Virus record (IMG/VR): IMGVR_UViG_3300036939_000021
Span: 32,001 to 96,000 of that record
From: a virus
Reading direction: 5' to 3' (one strand)
DNA length: 64,000 bases
In this document: positions 4,621-63,020 of the stretch, piece by piece
Numbering within the stretch: position 1 is the first letter of the stretch
Layout of the letters: every line of letters starts with the position of its first letter
The notes under the pieces: model-generated
Seen by the model: only the letters and a program-made list of their open reading frames with translations
What the model was told of the DNA's origin: nothing
Databases searched by the model: none
Program-made: the position numbers and the translations under genes

Positions 4621-4687
4621 TTGACATATTAGATTTTTATAATTATAATAGAGGAGTCGGGAAAGAAAAGCTAAGGAAATCGAAAAA
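4621..4687 (+). promoter_or_regulatory. repeated early promoter/RBS module
   Basis: TTGACA-17nt-TATAAT-AGAGGAGTCGGGAAAGAAAAGCTAAGGAAATCGAAAAA-ATG. Confidence 0.9.
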
Positions 4688-4927
4688 ATGCTAAATAAAC
4701 CAGAATTGCTTGAGCATCTTAAGTCTTCTTTAGAAAAAGCTTCAAAAGCTACATCTAAAAAAGAATTAAGACAATATTTAAGCTTGGCTCGATCATATGC
4801 AGGAGCGCTCGATCATCCTTGTTCAGAAGAACTTCAAACTCAAATAAATTTTCTGGATAATTTCAAAGGACACTTACCAAAGATCCATCTAAAAAATATT
4901 CAGAATCTCTGCAAAACAATTCTCTAA
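4688..4927 (+). CDS. hypothetical protein (cassette cargo)
   Basis: ORF directly after the promoter module and followed by a terminator at 4961-4989. Confidence 0.75.
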   Translation: MLNKPELLEHLKSSLEKASKATSKKELRQYLSLARSYAGALDHPCSEELQTQINFLDNFKGHLPKIHLKNIQNLCKTIL

Positions 4928-4987
4928 TAAAACACTTTCGATTATTCCATGTCTTCTTTCTCTCCTCACCTTCGAGGAGATTTTTTT

Positions 4988-5263
4988 TTATCTAAGCGTT
5001 CCATCAAATATTCTTACAAAACCGCCATACTGTACAACTCGTACTACTACCTTTTTTGGTACAGAATTTAAACTCTGAAGACTTGCCACAGGTTTAAAAT
5101 CCCAATCGGAATTATGAGTACACAAATTTGTAAGAAATTCTAGAGATATAGAATTTTTTGTTGTGCGTTCTATCCAATAATAATTTTGTAAATAATTTAA
5201 ACCGTTAGGATCTGATTCTGATGATTGTGACATTTTCAACAAAATAAAATAATATGCTAACAC
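4988..5263 (-). CDS. hypothetical protein
   Basis: ORF track; start probably at MSQSS. Confidence 0.45.
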   Translation of the reverse strand: MLAYYFILLKMSQSSESDPNGLNYLQNYYWIERTTKNSISLEFLTNLCTHNSDWDFKPVASLQSLNSVPKKVVVRVVQYGGFVRIFDGTLR

Positions 5264-5302
5264 ATCTATTATAATTATTGTTGAAAAAATATTAGGGCAT
5301 CT

Positions 5303-5596
5303 ATGATCTATTTCGCGTATAAACCTGGTTTTGTAAAAATAGGATATTCAAAAGACCCAAGTAAACGTTTGAAACAATTGCAAACTGGATGCCCAGAACG
5401 ATTAAAGATTATTTGTAAAATACCGGGAGATAAGAAACTTGAACGAAAATTACAGAAATTATTTTGGCGTAATCTTTTAGATGATGAATGGTTTTATTTT
5501 ACAACGGGTTTAAAACTATATATAAAACGTCTCACGGAATCATCGAAATTTGTTGAGCCGAATTATATAGAACTTTTTTGTGTTCCAGATATTTAA
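5303..5596 (+). CDS. GIY-YIG nuclease family protein (T5orf172/MUG113-like)
   Basis: IYF...VKIGYSKDPSKRLKQLQTGCP...LERKLQ...EWF. Confidence 0.88.
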   Translation: MIYFAYKPGFVKIGYSKDPSKRLKQLQTGCPERLKIICKIPGDKKLERKLQKLFWRNLLDDEWFYFTTGLKLYIKRLTESSKFVEPNYIELFCVPDI

Positions 5597-5617
5597 AAAA
5601 TATTTTTAAAATATATC

Positions 5618-5682
5618 TTGACATCTTAGATTTTTATTATTAAAATAAAGGAGTAGGAAAGAAAAGCTAAGGAAAGCGAAAA
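5618..5682 (+). promoter_or_regulatory. repeated early promoter/RBS module
   Basis: TTGACATCTTAGATTTTTATTATTAAAAT...GCTAAGGAAA; 5597-5647 is identical to 6956-7006 (51 bp). Confidence 0.9.
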
Positions 5683-6135
5683 ATGCCTAAACAAAATATT
5701 CTTTTTCTCTGCCATGTAGAAGAAAGCTTTAGATCATTTTTTCCTGATAAACTCTACGTCACACGATTAATAAAAGCTTGTCAATCTGTCAAATACGATC
5801 AAGTAATTGCACTAGTCAGCAATATTATGGATTATGATCCAATTCCTGAAATAGCTGATTTAGTAACAGATAGAATAGATTTTAGTTGGGGATATGAGCC
5901 AGAACAATTTGAAGATGAACCGGAAGAAGAAAAATTTATTATAGACGCTAGCTATAAATCCGCTCATGATTGGACTTGGATACCTCCAGAACTTAGAGAT
6001 AAATCATGGGCAACTAATAAAAATATCTATATCGGTGGTGGATGTAACGGAGAATGTCTAGCAGATTTTGAAGTAGTACTAGAAACACTAGATATAGATT
6101 ACAAACGAATAGAAGGATATATCTACGGAGTCTAA
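5683..6135 (+). CDS. putative cysteine-hydrolase (isochorismatase-like) fold protein
   Basis: N-terminal LFLCHVE strand and IYIGGGCNGECL motif. Confidence 0.5.
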   Translation: MPKQNILFLCHVEESFRSFFPDKLYVTRLIKACQSVKYDQVIALVSNIMDYDPIPEIADLVTDRIDFSWGYEPEQFEDEPEEEKFIIDASYKSAHDWTWIPPELRDKSWATNKNIYIGGGCNGECLADFEVVLETLDIDYKRIEGYIYGV

Positions 6136-6194
6136 ACACTCTCGATTATTCCAGGGATGCATCTACTCTCTTACCCCATTCATCTTCTAAAATC

Positions 6195-6623
6195 ATGCAA
6201 ACATTTCTTCCTTATCCTGACTTTGTTAAATCTGCTGAATGTCTTGATAGACAAAGATTAGGTAAACAACGAGTCGAGTGTTTACAACTTCTTAATGCTA
6301 TTGCGGGAACTTCTAAAGGTTGGATTAATCATCCTTGTACCAAAATGTGGAAAGATTACCCAGAAGCATTAGTGCATTATTCCGTTGTAATTTGTTTTGA
6401 GTGGCGATCTAGAGGTTATAAAGATTCTTGTTTAGAAAAAATAGAAAATTTAGGACAGCAACAAAACTGGAAAATAGAACAAGATATTTTAAAATATCCT
6501 TCTTGGATAGGTAGAGAAGACGTACACGCTTCACATCGATCGAATTTACTTAGAAAACTTCCTGATCATTATCAGCAGTTTGGATGGAGTGAACCGGATA
6601 ATCTACCTTATATCTGGGTTTAA
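6195..6623 (+). CDS. pyrimidine-dimer DNA glycosylase/endonuclease V-like (MSMEG_6728 family)
   Basis: MQTFLPYPDF..SA..LD.QRLGKQRVE...HPCTKMW...HASHRSNLLRK. Confidence 0.88.
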   Translation: MQTFLPYPDFVKSAECLDRQRLGKQRVECLQLLNAIAGTSKGWINHPCTKMWKDYPEALVHYSVVICFEWRSRGYKDSCLEKIENLGQQQNWKIEQDILKYPSWIGREDVHASHRSNLLRKLPDHYQQFGWSEPDNLPYIWV

Positions 6624-6706
6624 TATCTAAAACATTCTCGATGATACTCTCCTCTCCTTAGAGGAGATTTTTTTTATAATAATATTGTTGAATTCTCAAA
6701 AAATTT

Positions 6707-6850: not shown

Positions 6851-6976
6851 AAGACCTCTCTAATTTTTAGGCTATCTAGCCCTAGCCGCAAGCTTTTCGA
6901 GTCTTATAGACTCACCTAGACCATAATAAAAAGCCCTCCAGGATTCTCGAAGGCTAAAATATTTTTAAAATATATC

Positions 6977-7042
6977 TTGACATCTTAGATTTTTATTATT
7001 AAAATAGAGGAGTCGGGAAAGAAAAGCTAAGGAAATCGAAAA
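6977..7042 (+). promoter_or_regulatory. repeated early promoter/RBS module
   Basis: TTGACATCTTAGATTTTTATTATTAAAATAGAGGAGTCGGGAAAGAAAAGCTAAGGAAATCGAAAA. Confidence 0.9.
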
Positions 7043-7243
7043 ATGCTAAAACCTAACCAAGTCATTCAATACAAAGGTCTACAAATCGCTATCTTTGCTA
7101 CAAAATCAATGAAATATGTAGCAACAGTAGGACAATACGACCACTACATGACAAATGATGTAGCGGCTCTAGGCTTAGAGAACGCTGAAACTGCTACAAA
7201 GAGCGCTAAAGCTTATATTGATGATTTGAAAAAGACAGCATAG
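7043..7243 (+). CDS. hypothetical protein (cassette cargo)
   Basis: ORF after the promoter module; terminator at 7264-7295. Confidence 0.75.
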   Translation: MLKPNQVIQYKGLQIAIFATKSMKYVATVGQYDHYMTNDVAALGLENAETATKSAKAYIDDLKKTA

Positions 7244-7315
7244 AAGCTAACCTAGACCATAATAAAAAGCCCTCTAGAATCCTAGAGGGCTTTTTATTTT
7301 ACTTAAATTTTGATT

Positions 7316-8317
7316 TTAAGCGGCTAATGTTTCCTTAGCGAATAGATATGATTCCAGTTGTTCTTTCTTTTCTGGTACATACTCAAGCCATACCTTACCA
7401 CATTCTTGTTTCATCTCTATAGAAAACTGAAAGTCTATAAAATTCTCGCTAGGTGCTGGATGTTGTTTTTTAGAATAATCCTGATAAGGATTGGTTAGTA
7501 CACGATAGAGTTTTTCTGGAAGTGTCTTTTGAAATTGTTGATAAGACTTTTCCCAATTTGCAATTGCTGTTTGAATGTCTTCCTCATAGTCTTCATCTTC
7601 TAATTGCTCTTGTGTGACTTGAGTGAAGCCATAGGAAAAGAGATCAATTTGTTCGCCAGTAAATAAAGTATCGATGAGTTTTAGAAATAATCCTTGTCGC
7701 TTTTGCTCTAATTGGTGTTCCTCGTATTCTTCTTGAGTCATATTTTCAACGGATTTAAATCCATTTTGACTGAGAAAGGGTGAGTACTCATCGCCTCTGT
7801 AATTGATGATTTCTAAGAAACGCATTTTATGGAGAGGCATAGGATACGCCCAAGGTTCAATAGTTTTGATTTGATTGTCTTTAGCTGCAAGAGCTTTTTG
7901 TAGTTCTACTACCGTTTGTCGTAATTCCTCAAGTTCACCTCCAACGTTCTGATACTCAGTAACAACAGCTTGCGATGATACACCCTCAAGCATAACTACT
8001 TTATCTTTACCGAGTTTCTTAATGACATCGATAACCCATAAACGTAATTCAATATTTGACCAGTAACCAAAATCAATCACCATTTCTTCCGTTCCCCAAG
8101 TCCCTCCATATTTGCCTTTTTGGACATCTAAAACTTTACCTTTAGTTTTTTCTAAAGCTCTTGTTAACGCTAAAGTATTCTCATTTCGTAAATAATTTCC
8201 TATTAAAGTATTGGTACTTTTTGCCATATCTGTTAAACATCCCCAAATAGAACCATCATCTCTTGTTTCAAAACGGATATTTTTACCTTGAAATTCTTGT
8301 GTAATAATATTTGACAC
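7316..8317 (-). CDS. KilA-N domain protein
   Basis: IRFETRDDGSIWGCLTDMAK...YLRNENT...GGTWG...IDFGYW. Confidence 0.85.
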   Translation of the reverse strand: MSNIITQEFQGKNIRFETRDDGSIWGCLTDMAKSTNTLIGNYLRNENTLALTRALEKTKGKVLDVQKGKYGGTWGTEEMVIDFGYWSNIELRLWVIDVIKKLGKDKVVMLEGVSSQAVVTEYQNVGGELEELRQTVVELQKALAAKDNQIKTIEPWAYPMPLHKMRFLEIINYRGDEYSPFLSQNGFKSVENMTQEEYEEHQLEQKRQGLFLKLIDTLFTGEQIDLFSYGFTQVTQEQLEDEDYEEDIQTAIANWEKSYQQFQKTLPEKLYRVLTNPYQDYSKKQHPAPSENFIDFQFSIEMKQECGKVWLEYVPEKKEQLESYLFAKETLAA

Positions 8318-8321: not shown

Positions 8322-8510
8322 TTAGTTTCCTTGTTGTTTTTGTGAAGTTTGAGTGAGATTGTTACGAAATTGCTCTAAAGCAACCTTAATAACAGCATTA
8401 GCGGAAATCTGATGATCAATTGAGTAAGACTTTAACCATTCTTTAAGTTCAGCCGTAAGTCTTACCGACATAGTTGGAACCAAATGTCCGGATGAATCTT
8501 TTTTGTTCAT
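8322..8510 (-). CDS. Arc/ribbon-helix-helix regulator
   Basis: MSVRLTAELKEWLKSYS...SANAVIKVALEQF. Confidence 0.8.
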   Translation of the reverse strand: MNKKDSSGHLVPTMSVRLTAELKEWLKSYSIDHQISANAVIKVALEQFRNNLTQTSQKQQGN

Positions 8511-8519
8511 ATCTAAATA

Positions 8520-9900
8520 CTAACAAATGGTGTTTCCGGTGTCACCAATTTCTAGATATTCGTTACATAAGTTAAATGTGTTAGTTCACATAAATTGAAC
8601 TACTATACCCTGTAAGGCTTTCAGCCATTTAACCTTTTCTGATATGACCAGTTTTTCTATCCCCTAATCTCTAAATTACCTCAAAACCTTAACTTTTAGC
8701 CCTCCCAAGAAGCCTGAACCCTATACAGAGCATGAAATAGCGGTTTTTAGCCGTTCTTCAGAATCTCAAATAAGTATAAATACTTATGAATAGTTGAATC
8801 CTTGATTATATAAGGCTTTGAACCCTACACTACCCCAAAAAATCGAGGGTAAAACCTTCATTTCAGCCTTTGAAAAGCCTTAGTGACAAGTTGAAATTCG
8901 TAATATGACGTATTTTAAGATAATTTTTGGAAAGCCTGAATCGTTGATGGTTCTTAAGGTCTAGCGATTTGACCCCTTAAGAATCCCCATAGTTATTATT
9001 CCATTAGTGGCTTTCTCTCTAAAGACCCCCAAGTTAGTGCTAATCTTGATTTTTTTCTAGATTTTTGCAACTGGGCTGAAAGTATTGATTTTCCGTTGTT
9101 TTTAGTAGGTTCTGTAATAGAGTGTATAGTCTCTAATCAAATATCATATGAATTTAGTAGTGATATATCTGACCTAATTGCGGTTCAGTTAACCCACATA
9201 GGTCATATGCCAAAACGTTCATAGGAGTAATGTCCGAATAGAGTATGCACGTCTTAAAGCTCAGGGCATAAAGCCCTACTGGAATAATTCATAGATTTTT
9301 GGGGGTGTGGGGGAGAATCTAGATTGCTATTGAGGCGTAGGGGATTGGATAGGAGTCTTGAGGATTCTCTAGGTGCCATCTAGGAGGGCTGTAGAGCCTT
9401 AAAAGCTATCTTGGATGATGAATGACTCCTCTTAGAGACTCTCAGGGGCTTGTAGGAGCATGGACAGATTTAGTGACTAGTTTGGGTGAGAGGGTTAGGA
9501 TTTGTTACTAAGTAACTATAGTTATGTAGTTTGATGTTTTTGGATGGATTTTGAGTATACTACCTATCTTACTAGTTCCAAAAGTCTAGGATGACGTTAG
9601 AGTCAAGCATTCAGCTATTAGAGAAAAAAGAACACTAGAATGATACTTTCAGCGACTAGCTAAGTTAAGTAACAAGTTACTTTGTATTTTGGAGTAGTAG
9701 ATCGGTATTATATGCTTTCCAAAAATTCAAAGAAATTCTAAAAACATACTACATAGGCAGATTTCTATATAGAATCAATCCTCCAGCGTTTTTTATTGAG
9801 AATCGACCTAGCTTATCGCTAGAACCTTGATTCTATATAGAGGTTTTTGGAAAATAGGTACTAAAAAAACCTCTCAGAAGTCCTGAGAGGTTTTGAATGA
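8520..9900. other. long non-coding region, candidate replication origin or genome terminus
   Basis: ~1.4 kb without ORFs; top strand switches from C-rich to G-rich near 9200; many palindromes. Confidence 0.5.
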
Positions 9901-9917
9901 TTTTATTTGGCGATAGG

Positions 9918-10067
9918 CTAGGTGATGCCTCTTGCTAGCCGTTCTAGAGTGTCGGATAGACTAGTAGCGTTTATTTCTGTTTGTTTTTCTTCAAGCCACT
10001 TGAGTACTGTTGGAGTAACGGTAAGGGTGAGTTTTTGCTTAGATTCTTTATATACATTTTTTCTCAT
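9918..10067 (-). CDS. CopG/RHH protein (49 aa)
   Basis: Manual translation MRKNVYKESKQKLTLTVTPTVLKWLEEKQTEINATSLSDTLERLARGIT; terminator at 9864-9896. Confidence 0.75.
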   Translation of the reverse strand: MRKNVYKESKQKLTLTVTPTVLKWLEEKQTEINATSLSDTLERLARGIT

Positions 10068-10137
10068 AAGTAGTGTAATACCCGTTTAAAATACGTGCTA
10101 TAATTAAAGAGTAACGCAAATAGAAGGATTTTGCAAG

Positions 10138-10857
10138 ATGTCAGTTATTCAACAATGGCAGGGATCGGATATAAGATTTGAGACGCGTAAGGATGGACGT
10201 GTTTGGGGATGCCTTACAGATATGGCACAAGCAACAGGCAAACTAGTAGCCGATTATCTACGTCTTGTATCTACCCAAGATTATTTACAAGCTTTATCAG
10301 ATGATATGGGAATCCCCATAGCTAACATACTTTATGCTATTCCAGGTCAAAAAACAGGAACTTGGGCTATTGATGAAGTAGTAATAGATTTTGCACAGTG
10401 GTGCAATGTAAAGTTTCGGATTTGGGTGAATCGTGTTATTCGGAGTTTGATTATAGAGAAATCAGCATCATTTTTAGATGATTCTGTAGAAGAAAAAGCT
10501 TTATCGATGATTAGCAATTTAATTAATCAGATGGAAGCAAGTGTGAGTGATCCGTTAGCTGTTAGTCGTTATGGTAAGGCTATTGATGTTTTGAATGTAA
10601 CATTACATCGTAATCAAACGGCAATGTTAAAGGATATCAAAACTAACTCTGTTTCTGATTTCTTAGAACAACACGTAGAAGAGTTTAAAGGAGAGAAGAT
10701 GATAGCGAAAGACTTGTATCACAGTTATTGCCGTTTTTGCTTAAAAAATAAATATACAAAAGAGACATTAACATCTTTTGGTAAATATGTTAGTACAGTG
10801 TATGAAAAACATCGTACAAATAAAGGAGTAATTTATTTAGATATGCGGTTAAAATAA
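10138..10857 (+). CDS. KilA-N protein with C-terminal D5/P4-primase-type winged helix
   Basis: KilA-N N-terminus; C-terminal DLYHSYCRFC...TSFGKYV...RTNKGVIYLDMRLK. Confidence 0.8.
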   Translation: MSVIQQWQGSDIRFETRKDGRVWGCLTDMAQATGKLVADYLRLVSTQDYLQALSDDMGIPIANILYAIPGQKTGTWAIDEVVIDFAQWCNVKFRIWVNRVIRSLIIEKSASFLDDSVEEKALSMISNLINQMEASVSDPLAVSRYGKAIDVLNVTLHRNQTAMLKDIKTNSVSDFLEQHVEEFKGEKMIAKDLYHSYCRFCLKNKYTKETLTSFGKYVSTVYEKHRTNKGVIYLDMRLK

Positions 10858-10931
10858 AAATTGAAATGCGGTTTTTTGTCAAGTATACAAATCTGACTTT
10901 CCCAGAGGTCAGATTTTTTTTTAATATTTTA

Positions 10932-10995
10932 TTGACATCTTAGATTTTTATTACCATAATAGAGGAGTCGAAAGAGAAAGCTAAGGAAAACCAAA
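10932..10995 (+). promoter_or_regulatory. repeated early promoter/RBS module
   Basis: TTGACATCTTAGATTTTTATTACCATAATAGAGGAGTCG...GCTAAGGAAA. Confidence 0.9.
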
Positions 10996-11217
10996 ATGAG
11001 CTTATACATTAAGAATGCTGACCCTCTTTTATTTGTCTATGAGACTAGCGATCCAGAATCGGGAGAACCTGATTATCTTTTGACTACAACTTGCCCTTGT
11101 CTGGTAGGAAAGACTTCAATAGAACAAGCGATTATTCGAGATTCGTATGTAAATGAAACGGATGAAGATGAAGAAAAAGGAATAGCTTTAGTTTCTGAAT
11201 GGCTTAGAACACACTAA
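10996..11217 (+). CDS. hypothetical acidic protein
   Basis: First ORF of a cassette operon, with RBS. Confidence 0.75.
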   Translation: MSLYIKNADPLLFVYETSDPESGEPDYLLTTTCPCLVGKTSIEQAIIRDSYVNETDEDEEKGIALVSEWLRTH

Positions 11218-11279
11218 GAAATTTTCAATAATTCCAGGGATGCATCTACTAGGACAAAACACATAACTAAGGAAAAAAG

Positions 11280-11540
11280 ATGACATATATACCACAAAAA
11301 ATAATAGTCATAGATTTATATGGATCAGGATATGCTGTCTTAATAGATGCTAAGAGAGAACATGAAAAAGTTTGGTTTTCACATTCAGGTTTAACAGCTT
11401 GTGTAAGGAATAGACATCGAGTCAATGGGATTATAGAAAAAACAAGAATGAAAAATCCCAATATAGAGATTATTGAACACTATCATGATGGACATAATGA
11501 ATATATGCCATTAACTGAAGAAAGCAGACGTATTTTATAA
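11280..11540 (+). CDS. hypothetical protein
   Basis: TAAGGA RBS; same operon. Confidence 0.7.
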   Translation: MTYIPQKIIVIDLYGSGYAVLIDAKREHEKVWFSHSGLTACVRNRHRVNGIIEKTRMKNPNIEIIEHYHDGHNEYMPLTEESRRIL

Positions 11541-11592
11541 ATTATTAGAATGCATATACTAAGACAAAAAACCTCACATGGAATAATTCAAA

Positions 11593-11850
11593 ATGACAAC
11601 GACACAACAGACAGAACAAGATCAAGCAGAACATTACAAACGGTTATTTAACAAGTTTGCTGAAGGTGTCATAATGCTTTACAAACAAGCACTTGTTCTA
11701 AAAACACCTGAAGCATATCGATTCTGGAACTTACGAGAAGAAAACCTCTACAAGCAAATTACAGAGAATTTGAATGAGACAGACAAAAAGGAATTGCTCC
11801 GAATTCTGGTAATTGCTAATGAACGAGCGGTCAAAGTAATTCGTAAGTAA
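11593..11850 (+). CDS. hypothetical helical protein
   Basis: ORF track; same operon. Confidence 0.7.
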   Translation: MTTTQQTEQDQAEHYKRLFNKFAEGVIMLYKQALVLKTPEAYRFWNLREENLYKQITENLNETDKKELLRILVIANERAVKVIRK

Positions 11851-11909
11851 TTTAATAATAAAAATTAGGGAGCATCTACTATTAAAAGTGAACACCCAAT
11901 GGAATAATC

Positions 11910-12095
11910 ATAAAATTTGCAAAATTAGCTCTAGGTTTAACTCTTACGTTTTCTATCATTGTTGGTAATATTTATATTGTTGTAAAACCTTTGATAGCTT
12001 CTGAGACTCAAAGTTAGTGTAAAAAAGAAAAATCTAGTCCTTGTCCTGGTATGGGTAGGAGAGAGTACAATAGAATGATGTTTTCTTTTTCTTAG
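11910..12095 (+). pseudogene. decayed secreted peptide gene, PatX-like layout
   Basis: ATA start, signal-peptide-like N-terminus, internal TAG at 12015, C-terminal SSPCPGMGRRE. Confidence 0.4.
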
Positions 12096-12355
12096 CTACC
12101 ACAGTCTGACTTTTTATCAGGTCAGACTTTTTTTGTTTTAAATATTTTAATATTTTACTAATTTAGACTTTTCTAGAAGCCTCAATAATATTGGATAAGG
12201 GAATAGGTCATTTTCTTTATTTTTAAGGCTCTAGAGCCATTCTAGAGGGCACCTAGAAGATTAGAAAAGTCTGCTAGCTTTCGAGATTTTTCGAAATTTA
12301 TATATTTTCTAATAAAACAAAACAAAAAAAAATGGGGGATAGCTCCCCCAAGTCT

Positions 12356-12709
12356 TTATTCTTTTGTTTCCATCCAGTCTGCTAGTTTGGCTTTTCCTCC
12401 TTTTTTAATTATTCTCGTGTATTCTTTGTATTTTTCTTTGTCAGCTTTGCAAATTTCGGTCAAGTCTTTCAGAGTCATTTTAGAGAAGTTTGTCGGTTTT
12501 TCTGGAGGACTTTCTATAGGAATAATTTCTTGTTTTGGTTCTGGTTTTTTGATGATTTCTTTTGGCTTTTCTTCTGGTGTGTAGGGCTTGACTGGTGGAC
12601 AGTAAGTAGCCATCCAGGTTATGTGAGAGTGGTAGAAAGCATGAGCGATGATTCCAGAGAATCCTATGATTGCAATAGACTCGATTGCTGAGGTGAGAAG
12701 TGCTTGCAT
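12356..12709 (-). CDS. membrane-anchored protein with C-terminal Rho_N/HeH-like motif
   Basis: Hydrophobic N-terminus, P/E/K linker, FSKMTLKDLTEICK. Confidence 0.6.
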   Translation of the reverse strand: MQALLTSAIESIAIIGFSGIIAHAFYHSHITWMATYCPPVKPYTPEEKPKEIIKKPEPKQEIIPIESPPEKPTNFSKMTLKDLTEICKADKEKYKEYTRIIKKGGKAKLADWMETKE

Positions 12710-12827
12710 TGTCTATTTCCTTAGATTTTCTTAGCTAGGCGATTTAGAGAGGTTTTAGAGCTTTTTGAGGCGTCGCTCTTTTTCTTCCCTACTCTTCTAT
12801 TTTATTAATAAAAATCTAAGATGTCAA
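12710..12827 (-). promoter_or_regulatory. repeated early promoter/RBS module (with a longer leader)
   Basis: Reverse complement TTGACATCTTAGATTTTTATTAATAAAATAGAAGAGTAGG...CTAAGGAAATAGACA-ATG. Confidence 0.88.
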
Positions 12828-12912: not shown

Positions 12913-13659
12913 ATGGTTGAATTATTAAAAGATCCATATTTTCGAGTACAACTAGATAAAGATGCAAGTTCACCTAATCCGGAAGCTGCGATATGGAATG
13001 CACAACATATTTGTGTAGCTGAGAAAGATTCTTATCATGATCAGCTACCTTTAGAACCTGGAAAAGCAATAATAAAACATCAATTAGAAGGTGGAAAGGG
13101 TCACTATTCAGTAGCTGCTTTTGCTTTTGCAAAAATAGATTTTTATGGTTTCTCGCATGATGCTATTATGCAGATGAGAACTCATCACACTAGTGGTAGT
13201 GATGTAAGATTTCTAGTACAAAGTTCTCGTTATACTTCTCAGAGATTTATAGATGTAGCTGAAGGAAAACTAAAACCAGAGGAAGTATTTTATTGGCGTC
13301 CTTTAGGAAAATATACAAGTCGTAATGGTTGGTATGAAAATAGTGATTTAGTACAGAATATTTTTTATGAGCAATGTAGAGAAAATTGTAAAGTCTATGC
13401 TGATTTAGTTTTAGAGTACAATCAACCTTATGAACAGGCAAGAAACGTACTTTCACAAGGAATACGACAAGATTTCACAATAGCAGCAACGTTAAAAGGA
13501 TTTTGGCATTTACTCGATCAAAGAACAAAAAAAGATTCTCAACTAGAAATTCAAACTTTAGCAGAAATGTTACAGCAAGAATTAGAAAAATGGTGTCCTA
13601 CACTTTCTTATTGGTACAGAGAGAATCATATTAAAAAATCTAAGAAATTATTACCTTAA
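12913..13659 (+). CDS. thyX: flavin-dependent thymidylate synthase
   Basis: GHYSV, QMRTH, VQSSRY, EQAR, HLLDQRTKKDSQLEIQ motifs. Confidence 0.92.
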   Translation: MVELLKDPYFRVQLDKDASSPNPEAAIWNAQHICVAEKDSYHDQLPLEPGKAIIKHQLEGGKGHYSVAAFAFAKIDFYGFSHDAIMQMRTHHTSGSDVRFLVQSSRYTSQRFIDVAEGKLKPEEVFYWRPLGKYTSRNGWYENSDLVQNIFYEQCRENCKVYADLVLEYNQPYEQARNVLSQGIRQDFTIAATLKGFWHLLDQRTKKDSQLEIQTLAEMLQQELEKWCPTLSYWYRENHIKKSKKLLP

Positions 13660-13665
13660 AACAAG

Positions 13666-14196
13666 ATGACTATATTAGTTGACTGGCAGATAAGACAAGA
13701 AGCCTTACGAAATAATTTAGTAGTGCCTTTTGATGAGGAGATGCTCAATCCTTGTTCTATTGATGTGAGAGTAGGACATACAGCAAAACTTCGGATAGTT
13801 GGAGGATGGCAAGATATAGAATTAGCACATTATGGGGAAACATTTCCTTATATGCTTTATCCAGGAGATAGAGTTTTAATAGCTAGTTTAGAGACTTATA
13901 ATTTTTCTGAAAATTTAGCTGGACAGTTTAAATTAAAATCTAGTCGAGGTAGAGAATGGTATGAACATTTAGAAGCGGGATGGATAGATCCAGGATGGCA
14001 CGGAAGTAAATTAACAATGGAAATTATTGCAATGGATGTATCACCATTGCCTTTATATCCAGGTTTAAGAATGGGTCAAATAATATTTTTTAAATTAGAT
14101 GAAATACCAGAGAAATCTTATAGTGTGACTGGAAAGTATAATAATGATGTAACGGTACAAGAGAGTAAAGATAATATTTTTAGTATAAAATATTGA
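13666..14196 (+). CDS. dcd: dCTP deaminase
   Basis: LNPCSIDV...LKSSRGR...AGWIDPGWHG..LTMEI...GKY. Confidence 0.92.
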   Translation: MTILVDWQIRQEALRNNLVVPFDEEMLNPCSIDVRVGHTAKLRIVGGWQDIELAHYGETFPYMLYPGDRVLIASLETYNFSENLAGQFKLKSSRGREWYEHLEAGWIDPGWHGSKLTMEIIAMDVSPLPLYPGLRMGQIIFFKLDEIPEKSYSVTGKYNNDVTVQESKDNIFSIKY

Positions 14197-15347: not shown

Positions 15348-15407
15348 TTGACAGCATATTAGATTTTAGCTATTATAGAGAAGTCGAGCTAAGAGAAGCA
15401 AAGAAAA
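15348..15407 (+). promoter_or_regulatory. repeated early promoter module (variant)
   Basis: TTGACAGCATATTAGATTTTAGCTATTATAGAGAAGTCGAGCTAAG. Confidence 0.8.
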
Positions 15408-15629
15408 ATGAAATTAACTTACTGGGTAGCTGTCAATAAGCAGGATGCTTCTTGCTATAATCTTCGAGCTAAAACTAAGAAACGGGTTTTAGAATTAATA
15501 AAACTTTCAGGGCATGATGATGAACACTATGGAACACCGAAAAAAGTAGAAATAGAGTATGATGATGGATTTGATTTATTAACACAAGCTTTAGGAGAAG
15601 GAGGACTAAGCTATTTAGAAGAAGATTAA
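15408..15629 (+). CDS. hypothetical protein (moron inserted antisense in the tail operon)
   Basis: Own promoter and terminator (15640-15680). Confidence 0.75.
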   Translation: MKLTYWVAVNKQDASCYNLRAKTKKRVLELIKLSGHDDEHYGTPKKVEIEYDDGFDLLTQALGEGGLSYLEED

Positions 15630-15698
15630 GATGATTAAAAAACAAAAAATCTCTTAGATAGCTCTAAGAGATTTTTTGTTTAATAGTTTCATATGGAA

Positions 15699-17426: not shown

Positions 17427-17456
17427 TTTAATAAATAAAAATAGTACGGTACTATT

Positions 17457-17469
17457 TACAATATTCCAC
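17457..17469 (-). promoter_or_regulatory. putative late promoter GTGGAATATTGTA
   Basis: 30 nt upstream of the major tail gene; same motif before scaffold, capsid and tape measure. Confidence 0.7.
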
Positions 17470-17471
17470 TA

Positions 17472-21208: not shown

Positions 21209-21221
21209 GTGGAATATTGTA
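21209..21221 (+). promoter_or_regulatory. putative late promoter GTGGAATATTGTA
   Basis: 29 nt upstream of the scaffold ATG. Confidence 0.7.
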
Positions 21222-21250
21222 AATACGGCTTTTATTAGAAAATATCTATT

Positions 21251-22099: not shown

Positions 22100-22104
22100 T
22101 TTTT

Positions 22105-22117
22105 GTGGAACATTGTA
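22105..22117 (+). promoter_or_regulatory. putative late promoter GTGGAACATTGTA
   Basis: 25 nt upstream of the capsid ATG. Confidence 0.7.
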
Positions 22118-22142
22118 ATTAAAGGAATATTATTAAAAAATA

Positions 22143-23507: not shown

Positions 23508-23523
23508 GATTTTAATAATAAAA

Positions 23524-24099: not shown

Positions 24100-24104
24100 G
24101 TATT

Positions 24105-41406: not shown

Positions 41407-41446
41407 GTTAGTTTAAATAAAATAAAAATTAAATTTAAATATACTA

Positions 41447-41896: not shown

Positions 41897-41955
41897 AGAT
41901 TGAGAAAAACAAAAAGAATCTCCTAAATAATGTATTATTTAGGAGATTCTTTTTG

Positions 41956-46283: not shown

Positions 46284-46296
46284 GTGGAATATTGTA
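46284..46296 (+). promoter_or_regulatory. putative late promoter GTGGAATATTGTA
   Basis: 28 nt upstream of the tape measure ATG. Confidence 0.7.
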
Positions 46297-46324
46297 TTTA
46301 TATATTTTAATTTTTTATTGTTAA

Positions 46325-52626: not shown

Positions 52627-52869
52627 CTATTTTAAATATATAGCTTTAACGATGTCTAAAGATTGTTTTTGTTTTTCATCAAGCCAATCTATATTTTCAT
52701 GCTCACCTTGATAAGTTCCTGATAAAGCATTAAGTCCTATTTCTACGAGATCACATCCAGAAATATCATCATATCCTGTTCCATTATTTCCAGAAACAAC
52801 AATTCGAGTCTCCGAGTCTAAACCTTCAAGCAATTTTTGTAATTTACCAACTGTTAGATATTCTTTCAT
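52627..52869 (-). CDS. hypothetical protein (cassette cargo)
   Basis: Promoter module at 52870-52933. Confidence 0.72.
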   Translation of the reverse strand: MKEYLTVGKLQKLLEGLDSETRIVVSGNNGTGYDDISGCDLVEIGLNALSGTYQGEHENIDWLDEKQKQSLDIVKAIYLK

Positions 52870-52933
52870 TTTCTATAATCCTTCGATTTTCTACTTACTT
52901 CTTAATTTTAACTATAAAAATCTAAGATGTCAA
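52870..52933 (-). promoter_or_regulatory. repeated early promoter module
   Basis: Reverse complement TTGACATCTTAGATTTTTATAGTTAAAAT. Confidence 0.85.
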
Positions 52934-53823: not shown

Positions 53824-54270
53824 TTAATTCTCCAAAAATCCCGATTCTGTTATAAAAGTAGCAAGCCCAAAAGCTTGCCATAAATGTGATTTTAAATATT
53901 TTGTAGTTTGCTTACCATACTTTTCTATAAGACACTTACGCATACCGGAATCATTAGTAACACCATGATGTTTTTTAATGGTTGTTCTTAAAATCATAGT
54001 ATCGTCTATATCTGTTATAATATCAGCTTTTTTCTTTTCCCAAACTTGATAAAATCTCCCACTCCAAAAAGCCGTATCTAAGATTTCACGTCCAATAACT
54101 TGCCCCATATTTGCAAGTTTCTCAATGAATAAATATTCAGCTTGTGATGATTCCAGTAGTGTTACTATTTGTCCATTTGTGGTAATGCAAGCCTTATATA
54201 TTTGTGTTCCATCCCATTCAAGATAGGCTGATATTTTATTACCCGGATCGATTGCGATTATTAAAGGCAT
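53824..54270 (-). CDS. RuvC-like Holliday junction resolvase
   Basis: IIAIDPG...FIE...HLWQAFGLA. Confidence 0.75.
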   Translation of the reverse strand: MPLIIAIDPGNKISAYLEWDGTQIYKACITTNGQIVTLLESSQAEYLFIEKLANMGQVIGREILDTAFWSGRFYQVWEKKKADIITDIDDTMILRTTIKKHHGVTNDSGMRKCLIEKYGKQTTKYLKSHLWQAFGLATFITESGFLEN

Positions 54271-54331
54271 AAAAAACTAGGTAAGTCTTACTGTGAGCTT
54301 ACCTAGTTTTTTAGTATATGTCAAGAGTATA

Positions 54332-55323: not shown

Positions 55324-55383
55324 AGCAAAAAGAAACATACACCGGAATCATAAAGATTATTCCGGTGTATGTTTCTTTTTGCT
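55324..55383. terminator. hairpin with GGAATCAT-AAAG-ATTATTCC core
   Basis: 25-bp perfect outer arms. Confidence 0.8.
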
Positions 55384-55391
55384 TTCTACTA

Positions 55392-57011
55392 TTACCGTCT
55401 AGTAAAAACCCATAAGTCCTCAGATGCTCTTGTAATAGCCGTATAGAGCAATCGATATATCACCGAATTATTCTCGTATGGCGTTAGATTAGGATTGCGA
55501 GAGAAGCAATCCGCATAGTTGTAAAAGACTTTATTAAGTGTCGTTCCTTGGGATTTGTGGACAGTAATTACCCAAGAACTATAAAGCTTATTTGTTACTT
55601 TGTATGTTTTATTACCGTCTTCAAAACAATAAGGTTTGTCTGATTCTGCTGTCCAATGCTGAAACTCAAATTGTGTATTAAAAGTATTATTGAGCAAAGA
55701 TTTATATTTTACTAAAATAGGTTCTGGTATTCGATATTGTTTCCAAAAATCAAGGACATATTGCATAAATCTTGCATAAGCTTTACGTTGAGAATCTGTA
55801 AGTACTGCTACCTCATATTCTCTACCTTTATAAGTTAGAGTAAGCAAGCAATATTCAATACATATTTGAGGTTCCCAATATTGAAAATATTTTAAAAATT
55901 CAGCATGATTATTAGATCTTGTTAAAGGAGAGAAAAAATAATGCTCTTTTATTTCGCAAGATTTTACATAAAAATCCTCAGAGTTTGCTAAACGTTTTCT
56001 TGCTTTATCACGCTCATCTACTAAATATTTTGTTTTATTTGTTTGTTCTTCTGTCCGTCTAGATACCCAACTTAAATCAAATAGTTCTAAATGTTTAGTC
56101 AAACTATAATAAGCATGAAAAGGTTGATGACTGAAAAGACACTCACCAGGTACATACTGGAATAATGCTGTTTCCCCATAGACAGCTGTTCTAATAAGAG
56201 TTGAAAATGTTTCTAGTGTTCGGCGTTTATAGACAAGCATTCTTAAATAATCCGGGCGAGGATTACCCATAAAATTTGCTTCCTGTAAAGCCATATGTAA
56301 GAAGTCAGCAAACCAGTGAGAATTCTCCGGTGCTACTTTTTCCTTACAAACTGTTATGGATTCTACTGATTTAGGGAATACATAAGCGTAATCTATTTCC
56401 TCATTTTCTATGCGTTCTCTAATACGAGAAGCTGTTTTTAAAATATTTCCTTGATATCTTACTATTCCCTCTAAATAAAATACTTTTTTAATTTGTCTAA
56501 AAGGTGCTGAAACTCTATTCTCTTTGACTGGATATAATTGATAAGGATCACCAATAAATAATAATTTACCTTTTATAGATTCCATAATCATTTCAAAAAG
56601 CAAATTATTAATCATGCTTGCTTCATCTACAAAAACATAATCATATAAACCATACGGTCTTGTTTCTACAGGATCAGACGTAAATTCTAATTCAGAATCG
56701 TCTTCCTCTTCTTCTGTGGGAATAGATTTTAAAAATTTATGAATAGTACCTAGTGCTATAGTTTTATACTGAGGTTTTCCTACTAATTTATTAATATTAA
56801 ATTGTGATAATTTTTCTTCTAAAACTCTTACAGCTTTATTTGTTGGAGCGCTAACACCTATAAGAGCATCAGGATCTTTATCTAAAATATCGTCTATTAA
56901 AGTTGCAACTAGAAAGGTCTTACCACTACCAGCAGCACCTATAAGAGTACCTGTACCTTCTAGTTGAAAAAACCATTCTCTAGCTTGCTGCTGACTTTCT
57001 GTAAGTTGCAT
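55392..57011 (-). CDS. SF1B (Dda/RecD-like) helicase
   Basis: GAAGSGKT, APTNKA, DEASM, GDPYQL, TVHKSQG, YTAITRA. Confidence 0.92.
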   Translation of the reverse strand: MQLTESQQQAREWFFQLEGTGTLIGAAGSGKTFLVATLIDDILDKDPDALIGVSAPTNKAVRVLEEKLSQFNINKLVGKPQYKTIALGTIHKFLKSIPTEEEEDDSELEFTSDPVETRPYGLYDYVFVDEASMINNLLFEMIMESIKGKLLFIGDPYQLYPVKENRVSAPFRQIKKVFYLEGIVRYQGNILKTASRIRERIENEEIDYAYVFPKSVESITVCKEKVAPENSHWFADFLHMALQEANFMGNPRPDYLRMLVYKRRTLETFSTLIRTAVYGETALFQYVPGECLFSHQPFHAYYSLTKHLELFDLSWVSRRTEEQTNKTKYLVDERDKARKRLANSEDFYVKSCEIKEHYFFSPLTRSNNHAEFLKYFQYWEPQICIEYCLLTLTYKGREYEVAVLTDSQRKAYARFMQYVLDFWKQYRIPEPILVKYKSLLNNTFNTQFEFQHWTAESDKPYCFEDGNKTYKVTNKLYSSWVITVHKSQGTTLNKVFYNYADCFSRNPNLTPYENNSVIYRLLYTAITRASEDLWVFTRR

Positions 57012-57075
57012 CTTCTTTTTAGGCTATAAATCTATATCTCTACTATATGCCTAAAAATGCAATATGTCAATAAAA

Positions 57076-59884: not shown

Positions 59885-59956
59885 TACTTTTATTAGTAAA
59901 ATAGGGTAAAAACAACAGAATCATAAATATAATATTTATGATTCTGTTGTGAGTTT

Positions 59957-60175
59957 TTAAAAAGTATCTTTCGCTTGCTCTAATAATTTTGCTAAATATT
60001 CATCAAAAATATCTACCGGAAAATCAAAAGCCTTATCATTATCATCATGTGTTGTTACTAATAAGCCCTCTTCATTATCATAATCAAAATCCCATAAACC
60101 TAGATTTGGGTTTCTTTCTAGTATTTCTGGATATTTTTCTTTTAGGTAATTATAAAAAATTTCTACATCGTTCAT
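59957..60175 (-). CDS. hypothetical acidic protein
   Basis: Likely start MNDVE after TAAGGA; promoter module at ~60200-60231. Confidence 0.6.
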   Translation of the reverse strand: MNDVEIFYNYLKEKYPEILERNPNLGLWDFDYDNEEGLLVTTHDDNDKAFDFPVDIFDEYLAKLLEQAKDTF

Positions 60176-60227
60176 GATAAATTCCTTAAAAGCTTCATTT
60201 CTACTATATGTCAAAATTTAATAGATG

Positions 60228-61670
60228 TCAACCTAAATACATCTCTATTGTTTGCTCATTTAATCCCAAAACTTTAAGAGCTTTTTGTTTCGTATTCACT
60301 CCTATTTTTTTATGCTCAATAATACGTTTTACCTTTTTTTGGTGAAGCATATTTGTTGATTCCATAATTCTTTTAATATATTGCCAGTCGTCTAGTTCCT
60401 CTTTATACTCTACTAATTCTCCGTCTACTTCTATTGGTGCTTCTCTTTTTTCTCGTTTTTCTGGAATAATTAACCACTCATTTAAAGTTCCACATTCACA
60501 TAATTTTTTATAGCCTTCTTCTCCTTTCATTACTACAACATTTTTAAAAACTAAAGGTAAACCACATCCAGAACATTTAAGCTTTTCTGGACTTCCTTTA
60601 GTTGTTATATCAGGGAATAATGAGTATTCTCGTTGAAATCTAGGACTACCATGAAAATGAGCATTTCCAGCATGATCTAATATTGTTAGCCTCTTACCAT
60701 TAGGCTTTGGTCTTAGACCTCTACCCCATATCTGAGTAAGCAATCCAGGACTACCCACAAAGCGCTGTAAGCTCAAGCAAGACACCAATGGAATATCGAT
60801 ACCCTCGGTAATTAGAGAGACATTTACAAGTCCTGTAAGCTCACCATAAAGATATGATTCCAGTGTGTCTCTTCTTTGTGTAGCTGTAAGAGTACTGCCG
60901 ATATATGCAAACTTATATTTACCATCAAAATAAGTATTAAATTTTTCTACAATAGCGTAGCAATGCTCAGTGGTTGTTGCATATACTAATGTTTTTTCTC
61001 CTAATGCAAATCGTTCCCACTCTTTACAAGCATCTGCTATCAACTCGCCTCTATTGAAGTGTAAATCTTGTTCGACTAAATCATCTTTAGAACTCTTAGC
61101 TTTGTAATCTGTTTTCCAAGATTTCAAATAATAATCAGCTAAATATCCTTGATCTATAAACCAACCAATATCATTATTTTCATAAGAATTTATATAATCA
61201 TAATAATGTCCTAAAGGTTGTCCGTCAGTACGCTCTGGAGTAGCTGTATAACCAATATGCCAAGCATTAGGAAAATATTTAAGAATTTTTGAATAGGTGT
61301 TAGATGGTGATCGATGAATCTCATCACCTATAACAATGTCATACTCTGGAATAACATCAAGACGGTTAGCAATACTTTTATAAACACCAATACTAATTTT
61401 ATTAAAAGTATTTTCTTTACCCATACCTAATCGGCTAACAAAAGGTTTTAAATAAGGTTTAGGTGAAGTAATACGTGCATATAGGTCTTCTACAAGCTCC
61501 CCCATAGGCACAACTATCAAAACACTTAAACCTTTTTTATAGGCATCCCATACATTTTTTGTTATTAAAGTTCCTTTTCCTGTACCAGTTGGTAGTAGTT
61601 GTAAAACTTTTTTACCTTGTAGTTCCCAAAGTTTTGTATCTATTGCAATTTGATAATCTCTAAGCTTCAT
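60228..61670 (-). CDS. SF2 DEAD/DEAH helicase with Zn ribbon
   Basis: PTGTGK, DEIH, TATPER.DG, EGIDIP, Q..GRGLRP, LDHAGN...HG. Confidence 0.92.
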   Translation of the reverse strand: MKLRDYQIAIDTKLWELQGKKVLQLLPTGTGKGTLITKNVWDAYKKGLSVLIVVPMGELVEDLYARITSPKPYLKPFVSRLGMGKENTFNKISIGVYKSIANRLDVIPEYDIVIGDEIHRSPSNTYSKILKYFPNAWHIGYTATPERTDGQPLGHYYDYINSYENNDIGWFIDQGYLADYYLKSWKTDYKAKSSKDDLVEQDLHFNRGELIADACKEWERFALGEKTLVYATTTEHCYAIVEKFNTYFDGKYKFAYIGSTLTATQRRDTLESYLYGELTGLVNVSLITEGIDIPLVSCLSLQRFVGSPGLLTQIWGRGLRPKPNGKRLTILDHAGNAHFHGSPRFQREYSLFPDITTKGSPEKLKCSGCGLPLVFKNVVVMKGEEGYKKLCECGTLNEWLIIPEKREKREAPIEVDGELVEYKEELDDWQYIKRIMESTNMLHQKKVKRIIEHKKIGVNTKQKALKVLGLNEQTIEMYLG

Positions 61671-61818
61671 CTGGAATAATATAGAAACCTATATCTACTA
61701 TATGCCATATTTTAATAGATGTCAATATTACAAAAAAAAAATAACCGCTAGTTTGCTCAAGACTAACGGTTAATAGTAGAGATTCAGTTAAAACTATTCA
61801 AATTTTCAACTATTTCTA

Positions 61819-62952
61819 TTAAAACACAAAATACTCCATATTCTTTTGTTCCTCAAGCAATCGTTGATATTTAGCAGGTAATCCGCTAGTGAAAACTTGA
61901 TGTTCCGGCATTTTATTACCCTTAGCATTTGGAGCAGAAATATAAAGATACCAAGGTTTTAAAGGTGTTGGAGGTTTATCTTTAACTAAATTTGTAGTTG
62001 CAATACTGCCAAGACTGCCACGATCTCCACATTGAATACTTCCAACAGTGTTTAAAGGAATATCATCGCTATCCATACCAAGATAAGCTTTTACTGGTAC
62101 TCCAGGCATATCACTAAGAGAGACTCCAAAAGTTGCCTGGAAGAATTTACCTGTTCCATCTTTTTTCTCGATTTTTCCTGTTTTAATTACCGAAGTAATA
62201 GGAATAATAACCCCTCGTTTAGGAAAAGTACCTTCTTTCATCATGTTTTCAAAAATTGTTTGAATTTTTGCACTAGCTGATATTCCAGAAGATATATTGA
62301 GTTTTAGATCTTTCCAAGCTTCTTGCCGTTCATCTTCATTTAAAGATGTTAAATCATCCCAAGTAGATTTAAAATTACCGTAATCAAAATCAGGTGTTAC
62401 TGAAATCCCTATTTGAAAACTAAGTTTATTAGTTTTCCTTTCTGGATGAGCAATAATAGCTAAAGGAATTCGATAACTTGTATTATCATTTCTTTTAAGT
62501 TCTATAGAATCTAAACCCAAACCATTAATTATAGTTCCTTCAAACGTTAAACGATTTTCAAAAACTTTCAAAGGAAAAAATTGATAATCTTCTACATTCC
62601 CTTTATCATCACCAATTACTAATCCGACTACATCATCAATCTTTTTAATTGTTGGTGCTTTTACATATTTGGGCGTATCTCCCAAATATGTAACAGAAAT
62701 AAATTTTTGAGCAACAGGTAATTCTGTATACTCTTTACCAAAAAGCGCAAGTAAAAGACCATGTACGTTATCAGCAACACTATATAGATCGCCTTCATAA
62801 GTCATATCAAGATTTTCAAGATCTTCAAGACTCACAAAGATATTAGTACGTTCATTATCTTGAGGATCAAAATCTTCCCCCATTTTTTGATATAAAAGAG
62901 AAGCATTAAACAGAGGAGCAAAGTAATTAGCAGTTAAATTGACTAAAGGCAT
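61819..62952 (-). CDS. hypothetical replication-module protein
   Basis: True start likely MPLVNL (62952), since 62953-63020 is a promoter module. Confidence 0.6.
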   Translation of the reverse strand: MPLVNLTANYFAPLFNASLLYQKMGEDFDPQDNERTNIFVSLEDLENLDMTYEGDLYSVADNVHGLLLALFGKEYTELPVAQKFISVTYLGDTPKYVKAPTIKKIDDVVGLVIGDDKGNVEDYQFFPLKVFENRLTFEGTIINGLGLDSIELKRNDNTSYRIPLAIIAHPERKTNKLSFQIGISVTPDFDYGNFKSTWDDLTSLNEDERQEAWKDLKLNISSGISASAKIQTIFENMMKEGTFPKRGVIIPITSVIKTGKIEKKDGTGKFFQATFGVSLSDMPGVPVKAYLGMDSDDIPLNTVGSIQCGDRGSLGSIATTNLVKDKPPTPLKPWYLYISAPNAKGNKMPEHQVFTSGLPAKYQRLLEEQKNMEYFVF

Positions 62953-63020
62953 TTTTCTATTTCCGTTAAGTGGTTTTTCCTCGACTCCTATATAGTAGCT
63001 ATAAAAATCTAAGATGTCAA
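62953..63020 (-). promoter_or_regulatory. repeated early promoter module
   Basis: Reverse complement TTGACATCTTAGATTTTTATAGCTACTATATAGGAGTCG. Confidence 0.85.

Follow-up and report, generated by a model that had tools for sequence, protein, structure and literature searches.

A repeated promoter family, probably for early and middle transcription, and its gene units in an uncultured phage genome

The 64,000-nucleotide (nt) stretch of DNA analysed here, called the window below and numbered from its own first letter unless genome coordinates are specified, comprises bases 32001–96000 of the viral record IMGVR_UViG_3300036939_000021. The record is the complete genome of a deep-branching, uncultured phage, with a length of 105,884 bp, a 127-bp terminal repeat, a GC content of ~32% and a coding fraction of 87%. 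Our subject is a family of closely similar promoters scattered over this genome, where they constitute the main repeat family, together with the open reading frames (ORFs) and hairpins that stand behind them. PHROG and Pfam matches identify lambda-type tail genes, encoding a 2099 amino acid (aa) tape measure, gpM- and gpL-like minor tail proteins, a J-like protein and a tailspike, with a weak major-tail match in addition; a portal; a replication module (DNA polymerase and two helicases); and ThyX, dCTP deaminase, KilA-N proteins, a TnpB-type gene and a two-domain sigma factor. There are no T4-type core genes among these matches. Searches of the phage for a tyrosine integrase and for tRNAs found neither, and an Rfam scan of the window gave zero matches.

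A repeated promoter family

The first-pass annotation of the window had listed 17 promoter coordinates, and all of them can be confirmed: each has TTGACA on the strand given, a 17-nt spacer and a -10-like hexamer. In a generic promoter scan these sites are, besides a few strays, the only matches to 10–12 of the 12 consensus positions in the window, and promoter-like matches of weaker quality are not enriched overall. The pattern TTGACA-N17-TAnnnT occurs 17 times in the window compared with 1.36 times in dinucleotide shuffles (maximum 5), and 34 times genome-wide compared with an expected 2.35. Longer strings behave likewise, with TTGACATCT seen 11 times in the window (0.85 expected) and 29 times in the genome (1.3 expected), and TTGACATCTTAGAT matched eight times at up to two mismatches (1.05 expected). 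The genome-wide motif scan that the annotation had proposed, run with a profile built from the 17 sites, finds ~38–40 sites in the whole 105,884-bp genome. Thirty of 38 sites are intergenic and the spacing of cassettes averages one per 3.8 kb. Around 20 family sites lie outside the window in a region of small genes on one strand (genome coordinates 102.5 kb, across the ends, to 27 kb) that looks like an early region.

Conservation had been said to go well past the -35 and -10 hexamers, and per-position analysis bears this out. With the copies aligned on the -35 box, TCT follows immediately on its 3' side in 82–92% of cases, A is conserved at +12 and TT at +16/17, the -10 box occupies +23 to +28 and is itself followed by a conserved A-n-A-G-n-A-G-T-n-G. 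Upstream there is an A/T tract from -21 to -11, in which A at -21 to -19 and T at -16 to -11 exceed background.

Clustering divides the copies into two discrete spacer classes. Class A promoters have a T-rich spacer holding ATCTTAGAT, a CATAAT or TAAAAT -10 box and then AGAGGAGT(C/A)G, and they head small orphan genes, including every unit in the tail and head region, in either orientation. Class B promoters, with an A-rich spacer and a GGCATATAGT/ACT -10 context, head the helicase and polymerase genes and several genes of the early region.

The modules also extend downstream. An ATG-initiated ORF of at least 45 aa begins at +50 to +70 in 35 of 38 sites, as against 4.4% of random positions (binomial p ~2e-44), with the ATG at +51 to +68 in nearly all copies. 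The leaders are 69% purine, carry ribosome sites of the AAGGA/GGAA type and show no RNA structure (mean free energy, dG, -2.4 kcal/mol; z +0.16). Leader motifs are almost confined to +29/+32, with GGAGTCG at exactly +32 of the promoter, and five of the seven copies of AGAGGAGT lie within cassettes, the string being hardly present elsewhere. Since the leader motifs keep a fixed distance from the promoter, the module is one unit in fixed register.

Hairpins and cargo

Hairpins were scored at dG <= -17 kcal/mol after the first ORF and dG <= -12 kcal/mol upstream of the promoter. A strong hairpin follows the first ORF at 16 of 38 sites in the genome and 11 of 17 in the window (4% at random positions), and three more window promoters drive two or three small ORFs and then a hairpin. 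Upstream hairpins are found at 17 of 38 sites, compared with 21% of random positions (p=0.004). We infer that these hairpins act as terminators. The order of promoter, small unrelated ORF and hairpin that the first-pass annotation had described thus holds for most units, but five of the 17 window promoters (57070, 60231, 61725, 63020 and 63619) drive replication-module genes instead: 57070 and 61725 each precede a helicase gene, 60231 a small ORF that comes before the polymerase gene, 63020 the gene of a 377-aa protein without known family and 63619 that of a 150-aa basic protein.

That the cargo behind this one promoter family is unrelated, as had been proposed, is confirmed by all-against-all blastp, which finds almost no paralogy among the cargo proteins. 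Many of them are small acidic proteins; in one the N-terminus is hydrophobic. Apart from one DenV-type pyrimidine-dimer glycosylase, none has a Pfam or PHROG family. The 131-aa product of 41501–41896, the one cargo protein compared with 5.8 billion proteins, matched only itself; the same search found one cargo protein on a second contig. Nor is the base composition of the cargo foreign, with a GC content of 31.9% compared with 31.8% in other small phage genes.

Mosaic copies

The modules of 5618 and 6977 (5597–5686 and 6956–7046), which are adjacent copies, are 95.6% identical over 91 nt, and another neighbouring pair, outside the window, is 96% identical over 55 nt. Across all copies, similarity shows no trend with genomic distance (rho 0.03). 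Distances calculated separately for the upstream, spacer and leader segments are weakly correlated (Mantel r 0.15–0.31): some pairs of copies have identical spacers and unrelated flanks, whilst in one pair the upstream part is identical and the spacers come from different classes. By these comparisons the copies are mosaics, which implies recombination between copies, separate selection on each segment, or both. The combination of near-identical neighbours and mosaic copies hints at exchange between copies, although the pattern is suggestive only.

The spacer palindrome and candidate regulators

A palindrome, ATCT-T-AGAT, overlaps the -35 box of the best-conserved copies and had been put forward as a built-in operator. 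It does occur beside the -35 box, in 10–11 copies genome-wide; an exact count gives 13 occurrences in the genome, ten of them in promoters. An operator is not supported, however: the conserved 77-nt consensus holds six palindromes of the 4+n+4 type compared with 3.4 in shuffles (p=0.16), so that a 4+1+4 palindrome is to be expected there by chance, and the dyad varies without compensatory changes, the variants at 4621 and 15348 breaking it. Its left arm is simply part of TTGACATCT, invariant in either class; only class A copies have the right arm, which half the family lacks. What needs explaining is rather the whole fixed spacer, including a block that is kept at 15348 and 33632 in spite of a 2-nt shift relative to the -35 box.

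The idea behind the operator was that the class A spacer, with its palindrome, binds one phage repressor, either the Arc-like protein described below or another ribbon-helix-helix (RHH)-like protein, which would silence all class A cassettes together. Several observations suit such a model. Some pairs of copies with unrelated upstream and leader parts share the 14-nt spacer exactly or almost exactly, the shifted block has been retained at two sites, the division into two discrete spacer classes follows the type of gene, and the phage does encode an Arc-like protein. Against this, in addition to the behaviour of the dyad, three of the 13 genomic palindromes lie outside promoters, the upstream region of the Arc-like gene itself has no copy, and two of the three RHH genes that had been named as candidate regulators have no family or fold support in the scans that were run. 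We regard a common class A repressor as unlikely. A factor that reads the spacer is equally doubtful, and the dyad itself provides no evidence for one.

Of the three RHH candidates, the supported one is the gene at 8322–8510(-), predicted to encode an Arc-like ribbon-helix-helix protein by its match to phrog_3180 (E=7.6e-6) and a weak match to DUF6290. The ORF at 63092–63544(-), RHH-like by eye, gave blank family and PDB sequence searches, and its single-sequence fold, with a predicted local distance difference test (pLDDT) score of 47, was not used. For 9918–10067(-), likewise RHH-like by eye, a PDB search of the minus-strand frame was blank; the family scans covered the overlapping plus-strand frame 9922–10089. 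Between this ORF and the Arc-like gene lies ~1.4 kb (8511–9917) with no ORF of at least 50 aa and no Rfam match. KilA-N domain paralogues are found at 7316–8317(-) and 10138–10857(+), with two further members outside the window; one paralogue follows the Arc-like gene and one also carries a D5/RFX-type DNA-binding part.

A late motif and a phage sigma factor

None of the structural genes has a promoter of the repeated -35/-10 family. A different string, the 17-nt GTGGAAYATTGTAAWTA, has exactly four copies in the genome (a reversed-pattern control gave 0), and all four stand 36–41 nt before the ATG of a late gene: at 17453–17469(-) before the major-tail-like (tail-tube) gene at 17426(-), at 21209–21225(+) before the scaffold-position gene at 21251(+), at 22105–22121(+) before the capsid-position gene at 22143(+) and at 46284–46300(+) before the tape measure gene at 46325(+). 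A fifth, near-copy precedes a gene outside the window. In one relative (G001), a string resembling GTGGAAYATTGTAAWTA precedes the scaffold-position gene.

At 629–1324(-) the window encodes a 231-aa phage sigma factor with regions 2 and 4 only (phrog_351, E=1.7e-37), of which two relatives (G001 and G003) encode a 34% identical homologue. We suggest that GTGGAAYATTGTAAWTA is a candidate late promoter, probably read with this sigma factor. The primary-sigma hexamers of the repeated family, the separate late motif and the presence of a phage sigma gene together lead us to infer a two-step scheme in which the promoter family is transcribed early with host sigma and the late motif is used by phage sigma. 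A search for a T7-type RNA polymerase gave no match, and the controls were equally without match.

The roles could be arranged differently, with the long consensus of the family, or of one of its classes, owed to reading by the phage sigma factor rather than by the host primary sigma. Such a factor, with regions 2 and 4, is indeed encoded, and conservation past the hexamers is typical of promoters that serve dedicated sigma factors. On the other hand, both hexamers and the 17 nt between them correspond to the textbook consensus for primary sigma. The genes headed by the family are orphan genes of early type and replication genes, never structural genes; the gene for the phage sigma lacks a family promoter; and the distinct motif before the structural operons makes a more natural target for that sigma. 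We therefore think this arrangement improbable, more so than a factor acting on the spacer.

Promoter units in the window

Towards the start of the window, the class A cassette at 4621–4980(+) consists of a promoter (4621–4649), a leader, a 79-aa ORF with no family (4688–4927) and a hairpin with T-run (4961–4980). The next class A cassette, 5618–6667(+), has its promoter at 5618–5646, a 150-aa orphan ORF at 5683–6135 and a second ORF of 142 aa at 6195–6623(+), the pyrimidine-dimer glycosylase (PF03013), ahead of a hairpin at 6648–6667. In the class A cassette at 6977–7296(+), the promoter (6977–7005) is followed by a 66-aa ORF (7043–7243) and a hairpin from 7261. The class A cassette at 10889–12128(+) is bounded by an upstream hairpin (10889–10916) and a closing one (12103–12128), between which the promoter (10932–10960) is followed by three small ORFs (10996–11217, 11280–11540 and 11593–11850, all on the plus strand). 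On the opposite strand, a class A cassette at 12333–12827(-) runs from its promoter (12827–12799) over an unusually long 118 nt to the ATG of a 117-aa ORF with a hydrophobic N-terminus (12709–12356) and ends in a hairpin with T-run (12350–12333). The ThyX and dCTP deaminase genes (12913–14196(+)) diverge from this promoter and have no family promoter of their own.

Units also stand within the structural region, as had been noted in the first-pass annotation. At 15348–15682(+), a class A variant whose spacer block is shifted by 2 nt (promoter 15348–15376, 73-aa ORF 15408–15629, two-way hairpin ~15640–15682) is oriented against the flanking run of minus-strand genes, which includes the weak major-tail match. 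A second variant with the same 2-nt shift, at 33271–33632(-) (promoter 33632–33604, 78-aa ORF 33567–33331, hairpin 33323–33271), sits between gpM-like (phrog_14) minor-tail genes at 33683–34012 and 32923–33270.

The stretch 40033–41957 has a two-way hairpin at either end; between these come, in order, two promoters back to back with their small ORFs, a hairpin, a promoter with one ORF, another hairpin and a further promoter with one ORF. The class A cassette at 40033–40417(-), with promoter 40417–40389, an 86-aa ORF (40362–40102) and a long two-way hairpin (40092–40033), stands back to back with the divergent unit at 40421–41025(+), whose promoter (40421–40449) is followed by two 80-aa ORFs (40474–40716 and 40706–40948) and a hairpin (40980–41025). 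Two class A cassettes follow: 41051–41405(+), with promoter 41051–41079, a 75-aa ORF (41112–41339) and a hairpin (41358–41405), and 41447–41957(+), with promoter 41447–41475 and the 131-aa ORF at 41501–41896. The two-way hairpin at 41908–41957 is common to the latter cassette and a convergent tail gene. The cassette terminators at 40033–40092, 40980–41025, 41358–41405 and 55325–55382 are long two-way hairpins built on inverted copies of an (ACAC)YGGAATAAT-type core; TGGAATAAT is the commonest 9-mer of the genome, with 24 copies. Just beyond the cluster, at 42011–42039(+), there is a promoter matching 11 of 12 consensus positions, with a TG-extended -10 box and no ORF behind it, which points antisense into the 3' part of a 1200-aa tail gene.

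Directly after the tape-measure gene, which is on the other strand, comes a class A promoter with an acidic ORF at 52627–52933(-) (promoter 52933–52905, 80-aa ORF 52869–52627). In the replication module, the promoter at 57070–57042, with a -10 context of class B type, heads a unit at 55325–57070(-) that contains a Dda-like helicase gene (57011–55392) and a hairpin (55382–55325). The class B unit at 59912–60231(-), with promoter 60231–60203, a small acidic ORF (60175–59957) and a hairpin (59950–59912), is followed by the DNA polymerase gene (59884–57785), and a second class B unit at 60228–61725(-) joins promoter 61725–61697 to a DNA helicase gene (61670–60228). The class A unit at 61819–63020(-), with promoter 63020–62992 and ATG at 62952, encodes the 377-aa protein. 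Last is an outlier promoter (63619–63591) in a unit at 63031–63619(-), with the 150-aa basic ORF (63544–63092) and a hairpin (63066–63031); a divergent plus-strand promoter lies beside it at 63632.

Two further loci were absent from the earlier list. A degenerate back-to-back pair lies at 37860–37945, just upstream of the portal gene, in which 37918(-) has a mutated -35 box and precedes a 49-aa ORF (37862–37713), whilst at 37916(+) TTGACA abuts a class B -10 context. An extra degenerate member at 54270–54324(-) begins with TTGACAT, has a stem-loop over the -10/leader position and directly precedes an ORF at 54270–53824.

The window also encodes a TnpB/IS605 OrfB-type gene at 2156–3487(-) (PF01385 and PF07282), and a hairpin downstream of it with a 20-bp stem (1974–2016) is 92% identical over 36 nt to 33280–33315, part of the hairpin closing the 33632 cassette. 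Together with the occurrence of cassettes in both orientations, this might suggest that a small transposable element, perhaps one moved by an IS200/IS605-type system, carries the cargo about and has its two termini at the promoter end and the hairpin end. We consider this very improbable, the least probable of the explanations weighed here: no Y1 transposase or target-site duplication is seen, the 3' hairpins are heterogeneous, the cargo has the base composition of other small phage genes, and the fixed register of the promoter ends with the ATGs is a trait of an expression signal and not of a terminus.

Relatives, host and gene order

Megablast of 12 kb against GenBank phages gave no match, and protein matches to GenBank phages, some of which infect filamentous cyanobacteria, reach only 25–31% identity. 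In the collections searched there is no close relative of the phage, portal identity being at most 59%, and no relative of its DNA polymerase in viral contigs. Among the nearest portal relatives (53–59% identical, GC content 41–54%) are contigs binned with the cyanobacteria Drouetiella and Coleofasciculaceae. Because of these bins and weak matches of the DNA polymerase to cyanophages, the host is probably a cyanobacterium, likely a filamentous one.

Neither the promoter motif nor a comparable repeat family is present in the portal relatives. An exact promoter 20-mer found no match in viral contigs and none in genomes; one metagenome match, on an unrelated 1.3-kb contig of 42% GC, was judged to be chance. 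Some 15 of 158 phage genes are matched in the relatives, in a differing order and with the small cargo ORFs unmatched, and synteny is too thin for breakpoints to be placed. One of the relatives' contigs carries a CRISPR-like array with a ~37-nt repeat in at least 14 copies (L021 ~17165–18181; G001 37165–38181).

In three relative lineages the portal gene and then the scaffold- and capsid-position genes lie within 0.1–2.6 kb. The corresponding blocks, contiguous in the relatives (L009–L018, G001–G003), are 14 kb apart here, at 37954–39510 (portal) and 21251–24476 (scaffold and capsid positions). The cassette cluster follows the portal block and the degenerate promoter pair precedes it. Such surroundings are compatible with cassettes at rearrangement joints but the association proves nothing, since cassettes occur every 3.8 kb on average. 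It is another 30 kb to the terminase-like gene, which belongs to the early region and runs on the opposite strand, and tail genes are scattered over both strands.

A more ambitious account would have the two spacer types read by phage factors, for instance an RHH protein acting on class A to time a switch from orphan to replication genes, with direct and inverted exchange between promoters and leaders moving cassettes into the tail and head region and scrambling gene order. To us this seems doubtful, on a par with a common repressor.

Discussion

Our preferred interpretation, to which we give a probability of roughly 0.75, is that the family is an early/middle promoter set for host RNA polymerase with primary sigma, and that it heads insulated units resembling PeSLs and morons. 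Each copy has an AT-rich tract upstream. Its perfect -35 box, lengthened to TTGACATCT, is separated by one of the two fixed types of 17-nt spacer from a near-consensus -10 box with a conserved start region (A-n-A-G-n-A-G-T), and a purine-rich, unstructured leader of 20–35 nt with an AAGGA-type ribosome site places the ATG 50–70 nt from the -35 box. Read by the host polymerase with its primary sigma, each copy would turn the one or more genes that it precedes into a self-contained transcription unit, closed by a strong and often two-way hairpin. Class A would drive small orphan genes and class B replication genes and some early-region genes, whilst the structural operons would use the separate 17-nt motif, read with phage sigma. 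The sameness of the copies would reflect selection for a strong, class-specific promoter together with copying or recombination between copies.

Several points weigh against this interpretation. The start sites, timing, polymerase and sigma factor are assigned to the family from sequence alone, and the host is assigned solely from the bins of distant relatives and weak polymerase matches. The phage sigma has a region 4 and could in principle read a -35/-10 promoter, and a number of non-structural genes (thyX, the sigma gene and the KilA-N genes) have no family promoter. An identical spacer of 14–20 nt amid unrelated flanks also exceeds the known needs of RNA polymerase, and thus leaves some room for a spacer-binding factor.

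The cassette concept itself is already known. PeSL (promoter-early stem-loop) cassettes, found among orphan genes in T4-type phages, join a sigma70 early promoter and its AT-rich tract to a stem-loop, a ribosome site and a start codon (ATG) (Arbiol et al. 2010, PMC2839356), and recombination between copies makes indels between close relatives and mini-circles (PMC2839356; Comeau et al. 2014, PMC4122927). The analogy with PeSLs and morons drawn in the first-pass annotation is borne out by this published anatomy (PMC2839356). Both systems combine a stop codon within the upstream AT-rich tract with a sigma70-consensus early promoter, a stem-loop and signals for translation (ribosome site and ATG), both are densely placed among orphan genes, with direct repeats of 50–90 nt flanking single orphan genes, and in both the units are transcriptionally insulated, a property predicted here from the nucleotide sequence. 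There are also differences. The present phage is not T4-like, having lambda-type tail genes and its own sigma factor; its hairpins are long, AT-rich and located after the ORF or 10–30 nt before the -35 box (54324 excepted), whereas PeSLs have G/C-tract stems inside the promoter; its units also lie inside the structural region, in both orientations; and recombination between copies has been demonstrated for PeSLs, whilst the copies described here are known from the sequence of one genome. PeSLs reside in the hyperplastic regions of T4-type myoviruses. As the present phage lacks a T4-type core, we class its units as working like PeSLs and not as their homologues: they work like PeSLs or morons in anatomy and probably in evolution too.

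Morons are said to have been described in lambdoid phages by Juhala and Hendrix in 2000. What defines a moron is that close relatives lack it at the corresponding position, that it is expressed from a prophage and, in many cases, that its base composition is odd. The units at 15348, 33632, 40033–41957 and 52933 resemble them in placing promoter, gene and terminator between structural genes, with an expression predicted to be independent of the late operon, but differ in that the cargo composition is native, a tyrosine integrase was not found and a single promoter family is shared by all units.

The promoters themselves invite a different comparison, with the early-promoter family of phage T5 that Gentz and Bujard reportedly described in 1985. 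Phages T5, T4 and SPO1 (in its host-takeover module) have early-promoter families with class-specific homology beyond the hexamers. Shared with the family described here are the many very strong promoters for host polymerase, the A/T-rich upstream tract, the conserved blocks in spacer and start region that differ by temporal class, and the placement of a promoter before almost every small early gene. Identity is higher in the present family, however, with 20–29 nt exact in 8–10 copies and up to 91 nt at 96%, and in a subset of copies it spans the whole leader to the ATG.

The analysis provides a sequence-defined transcription map for this phage, which comprises ~40 early/middle promoters of host type, divided between two classes, as well as a phage sigma factor and a separate candidate late promoter. 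The map indicates that PeSL-like packaging of orphan genes occurs outside the T4-type phages, even within a structural region, and it offers promoter and leader together as a candidate strong expression part for the host group.

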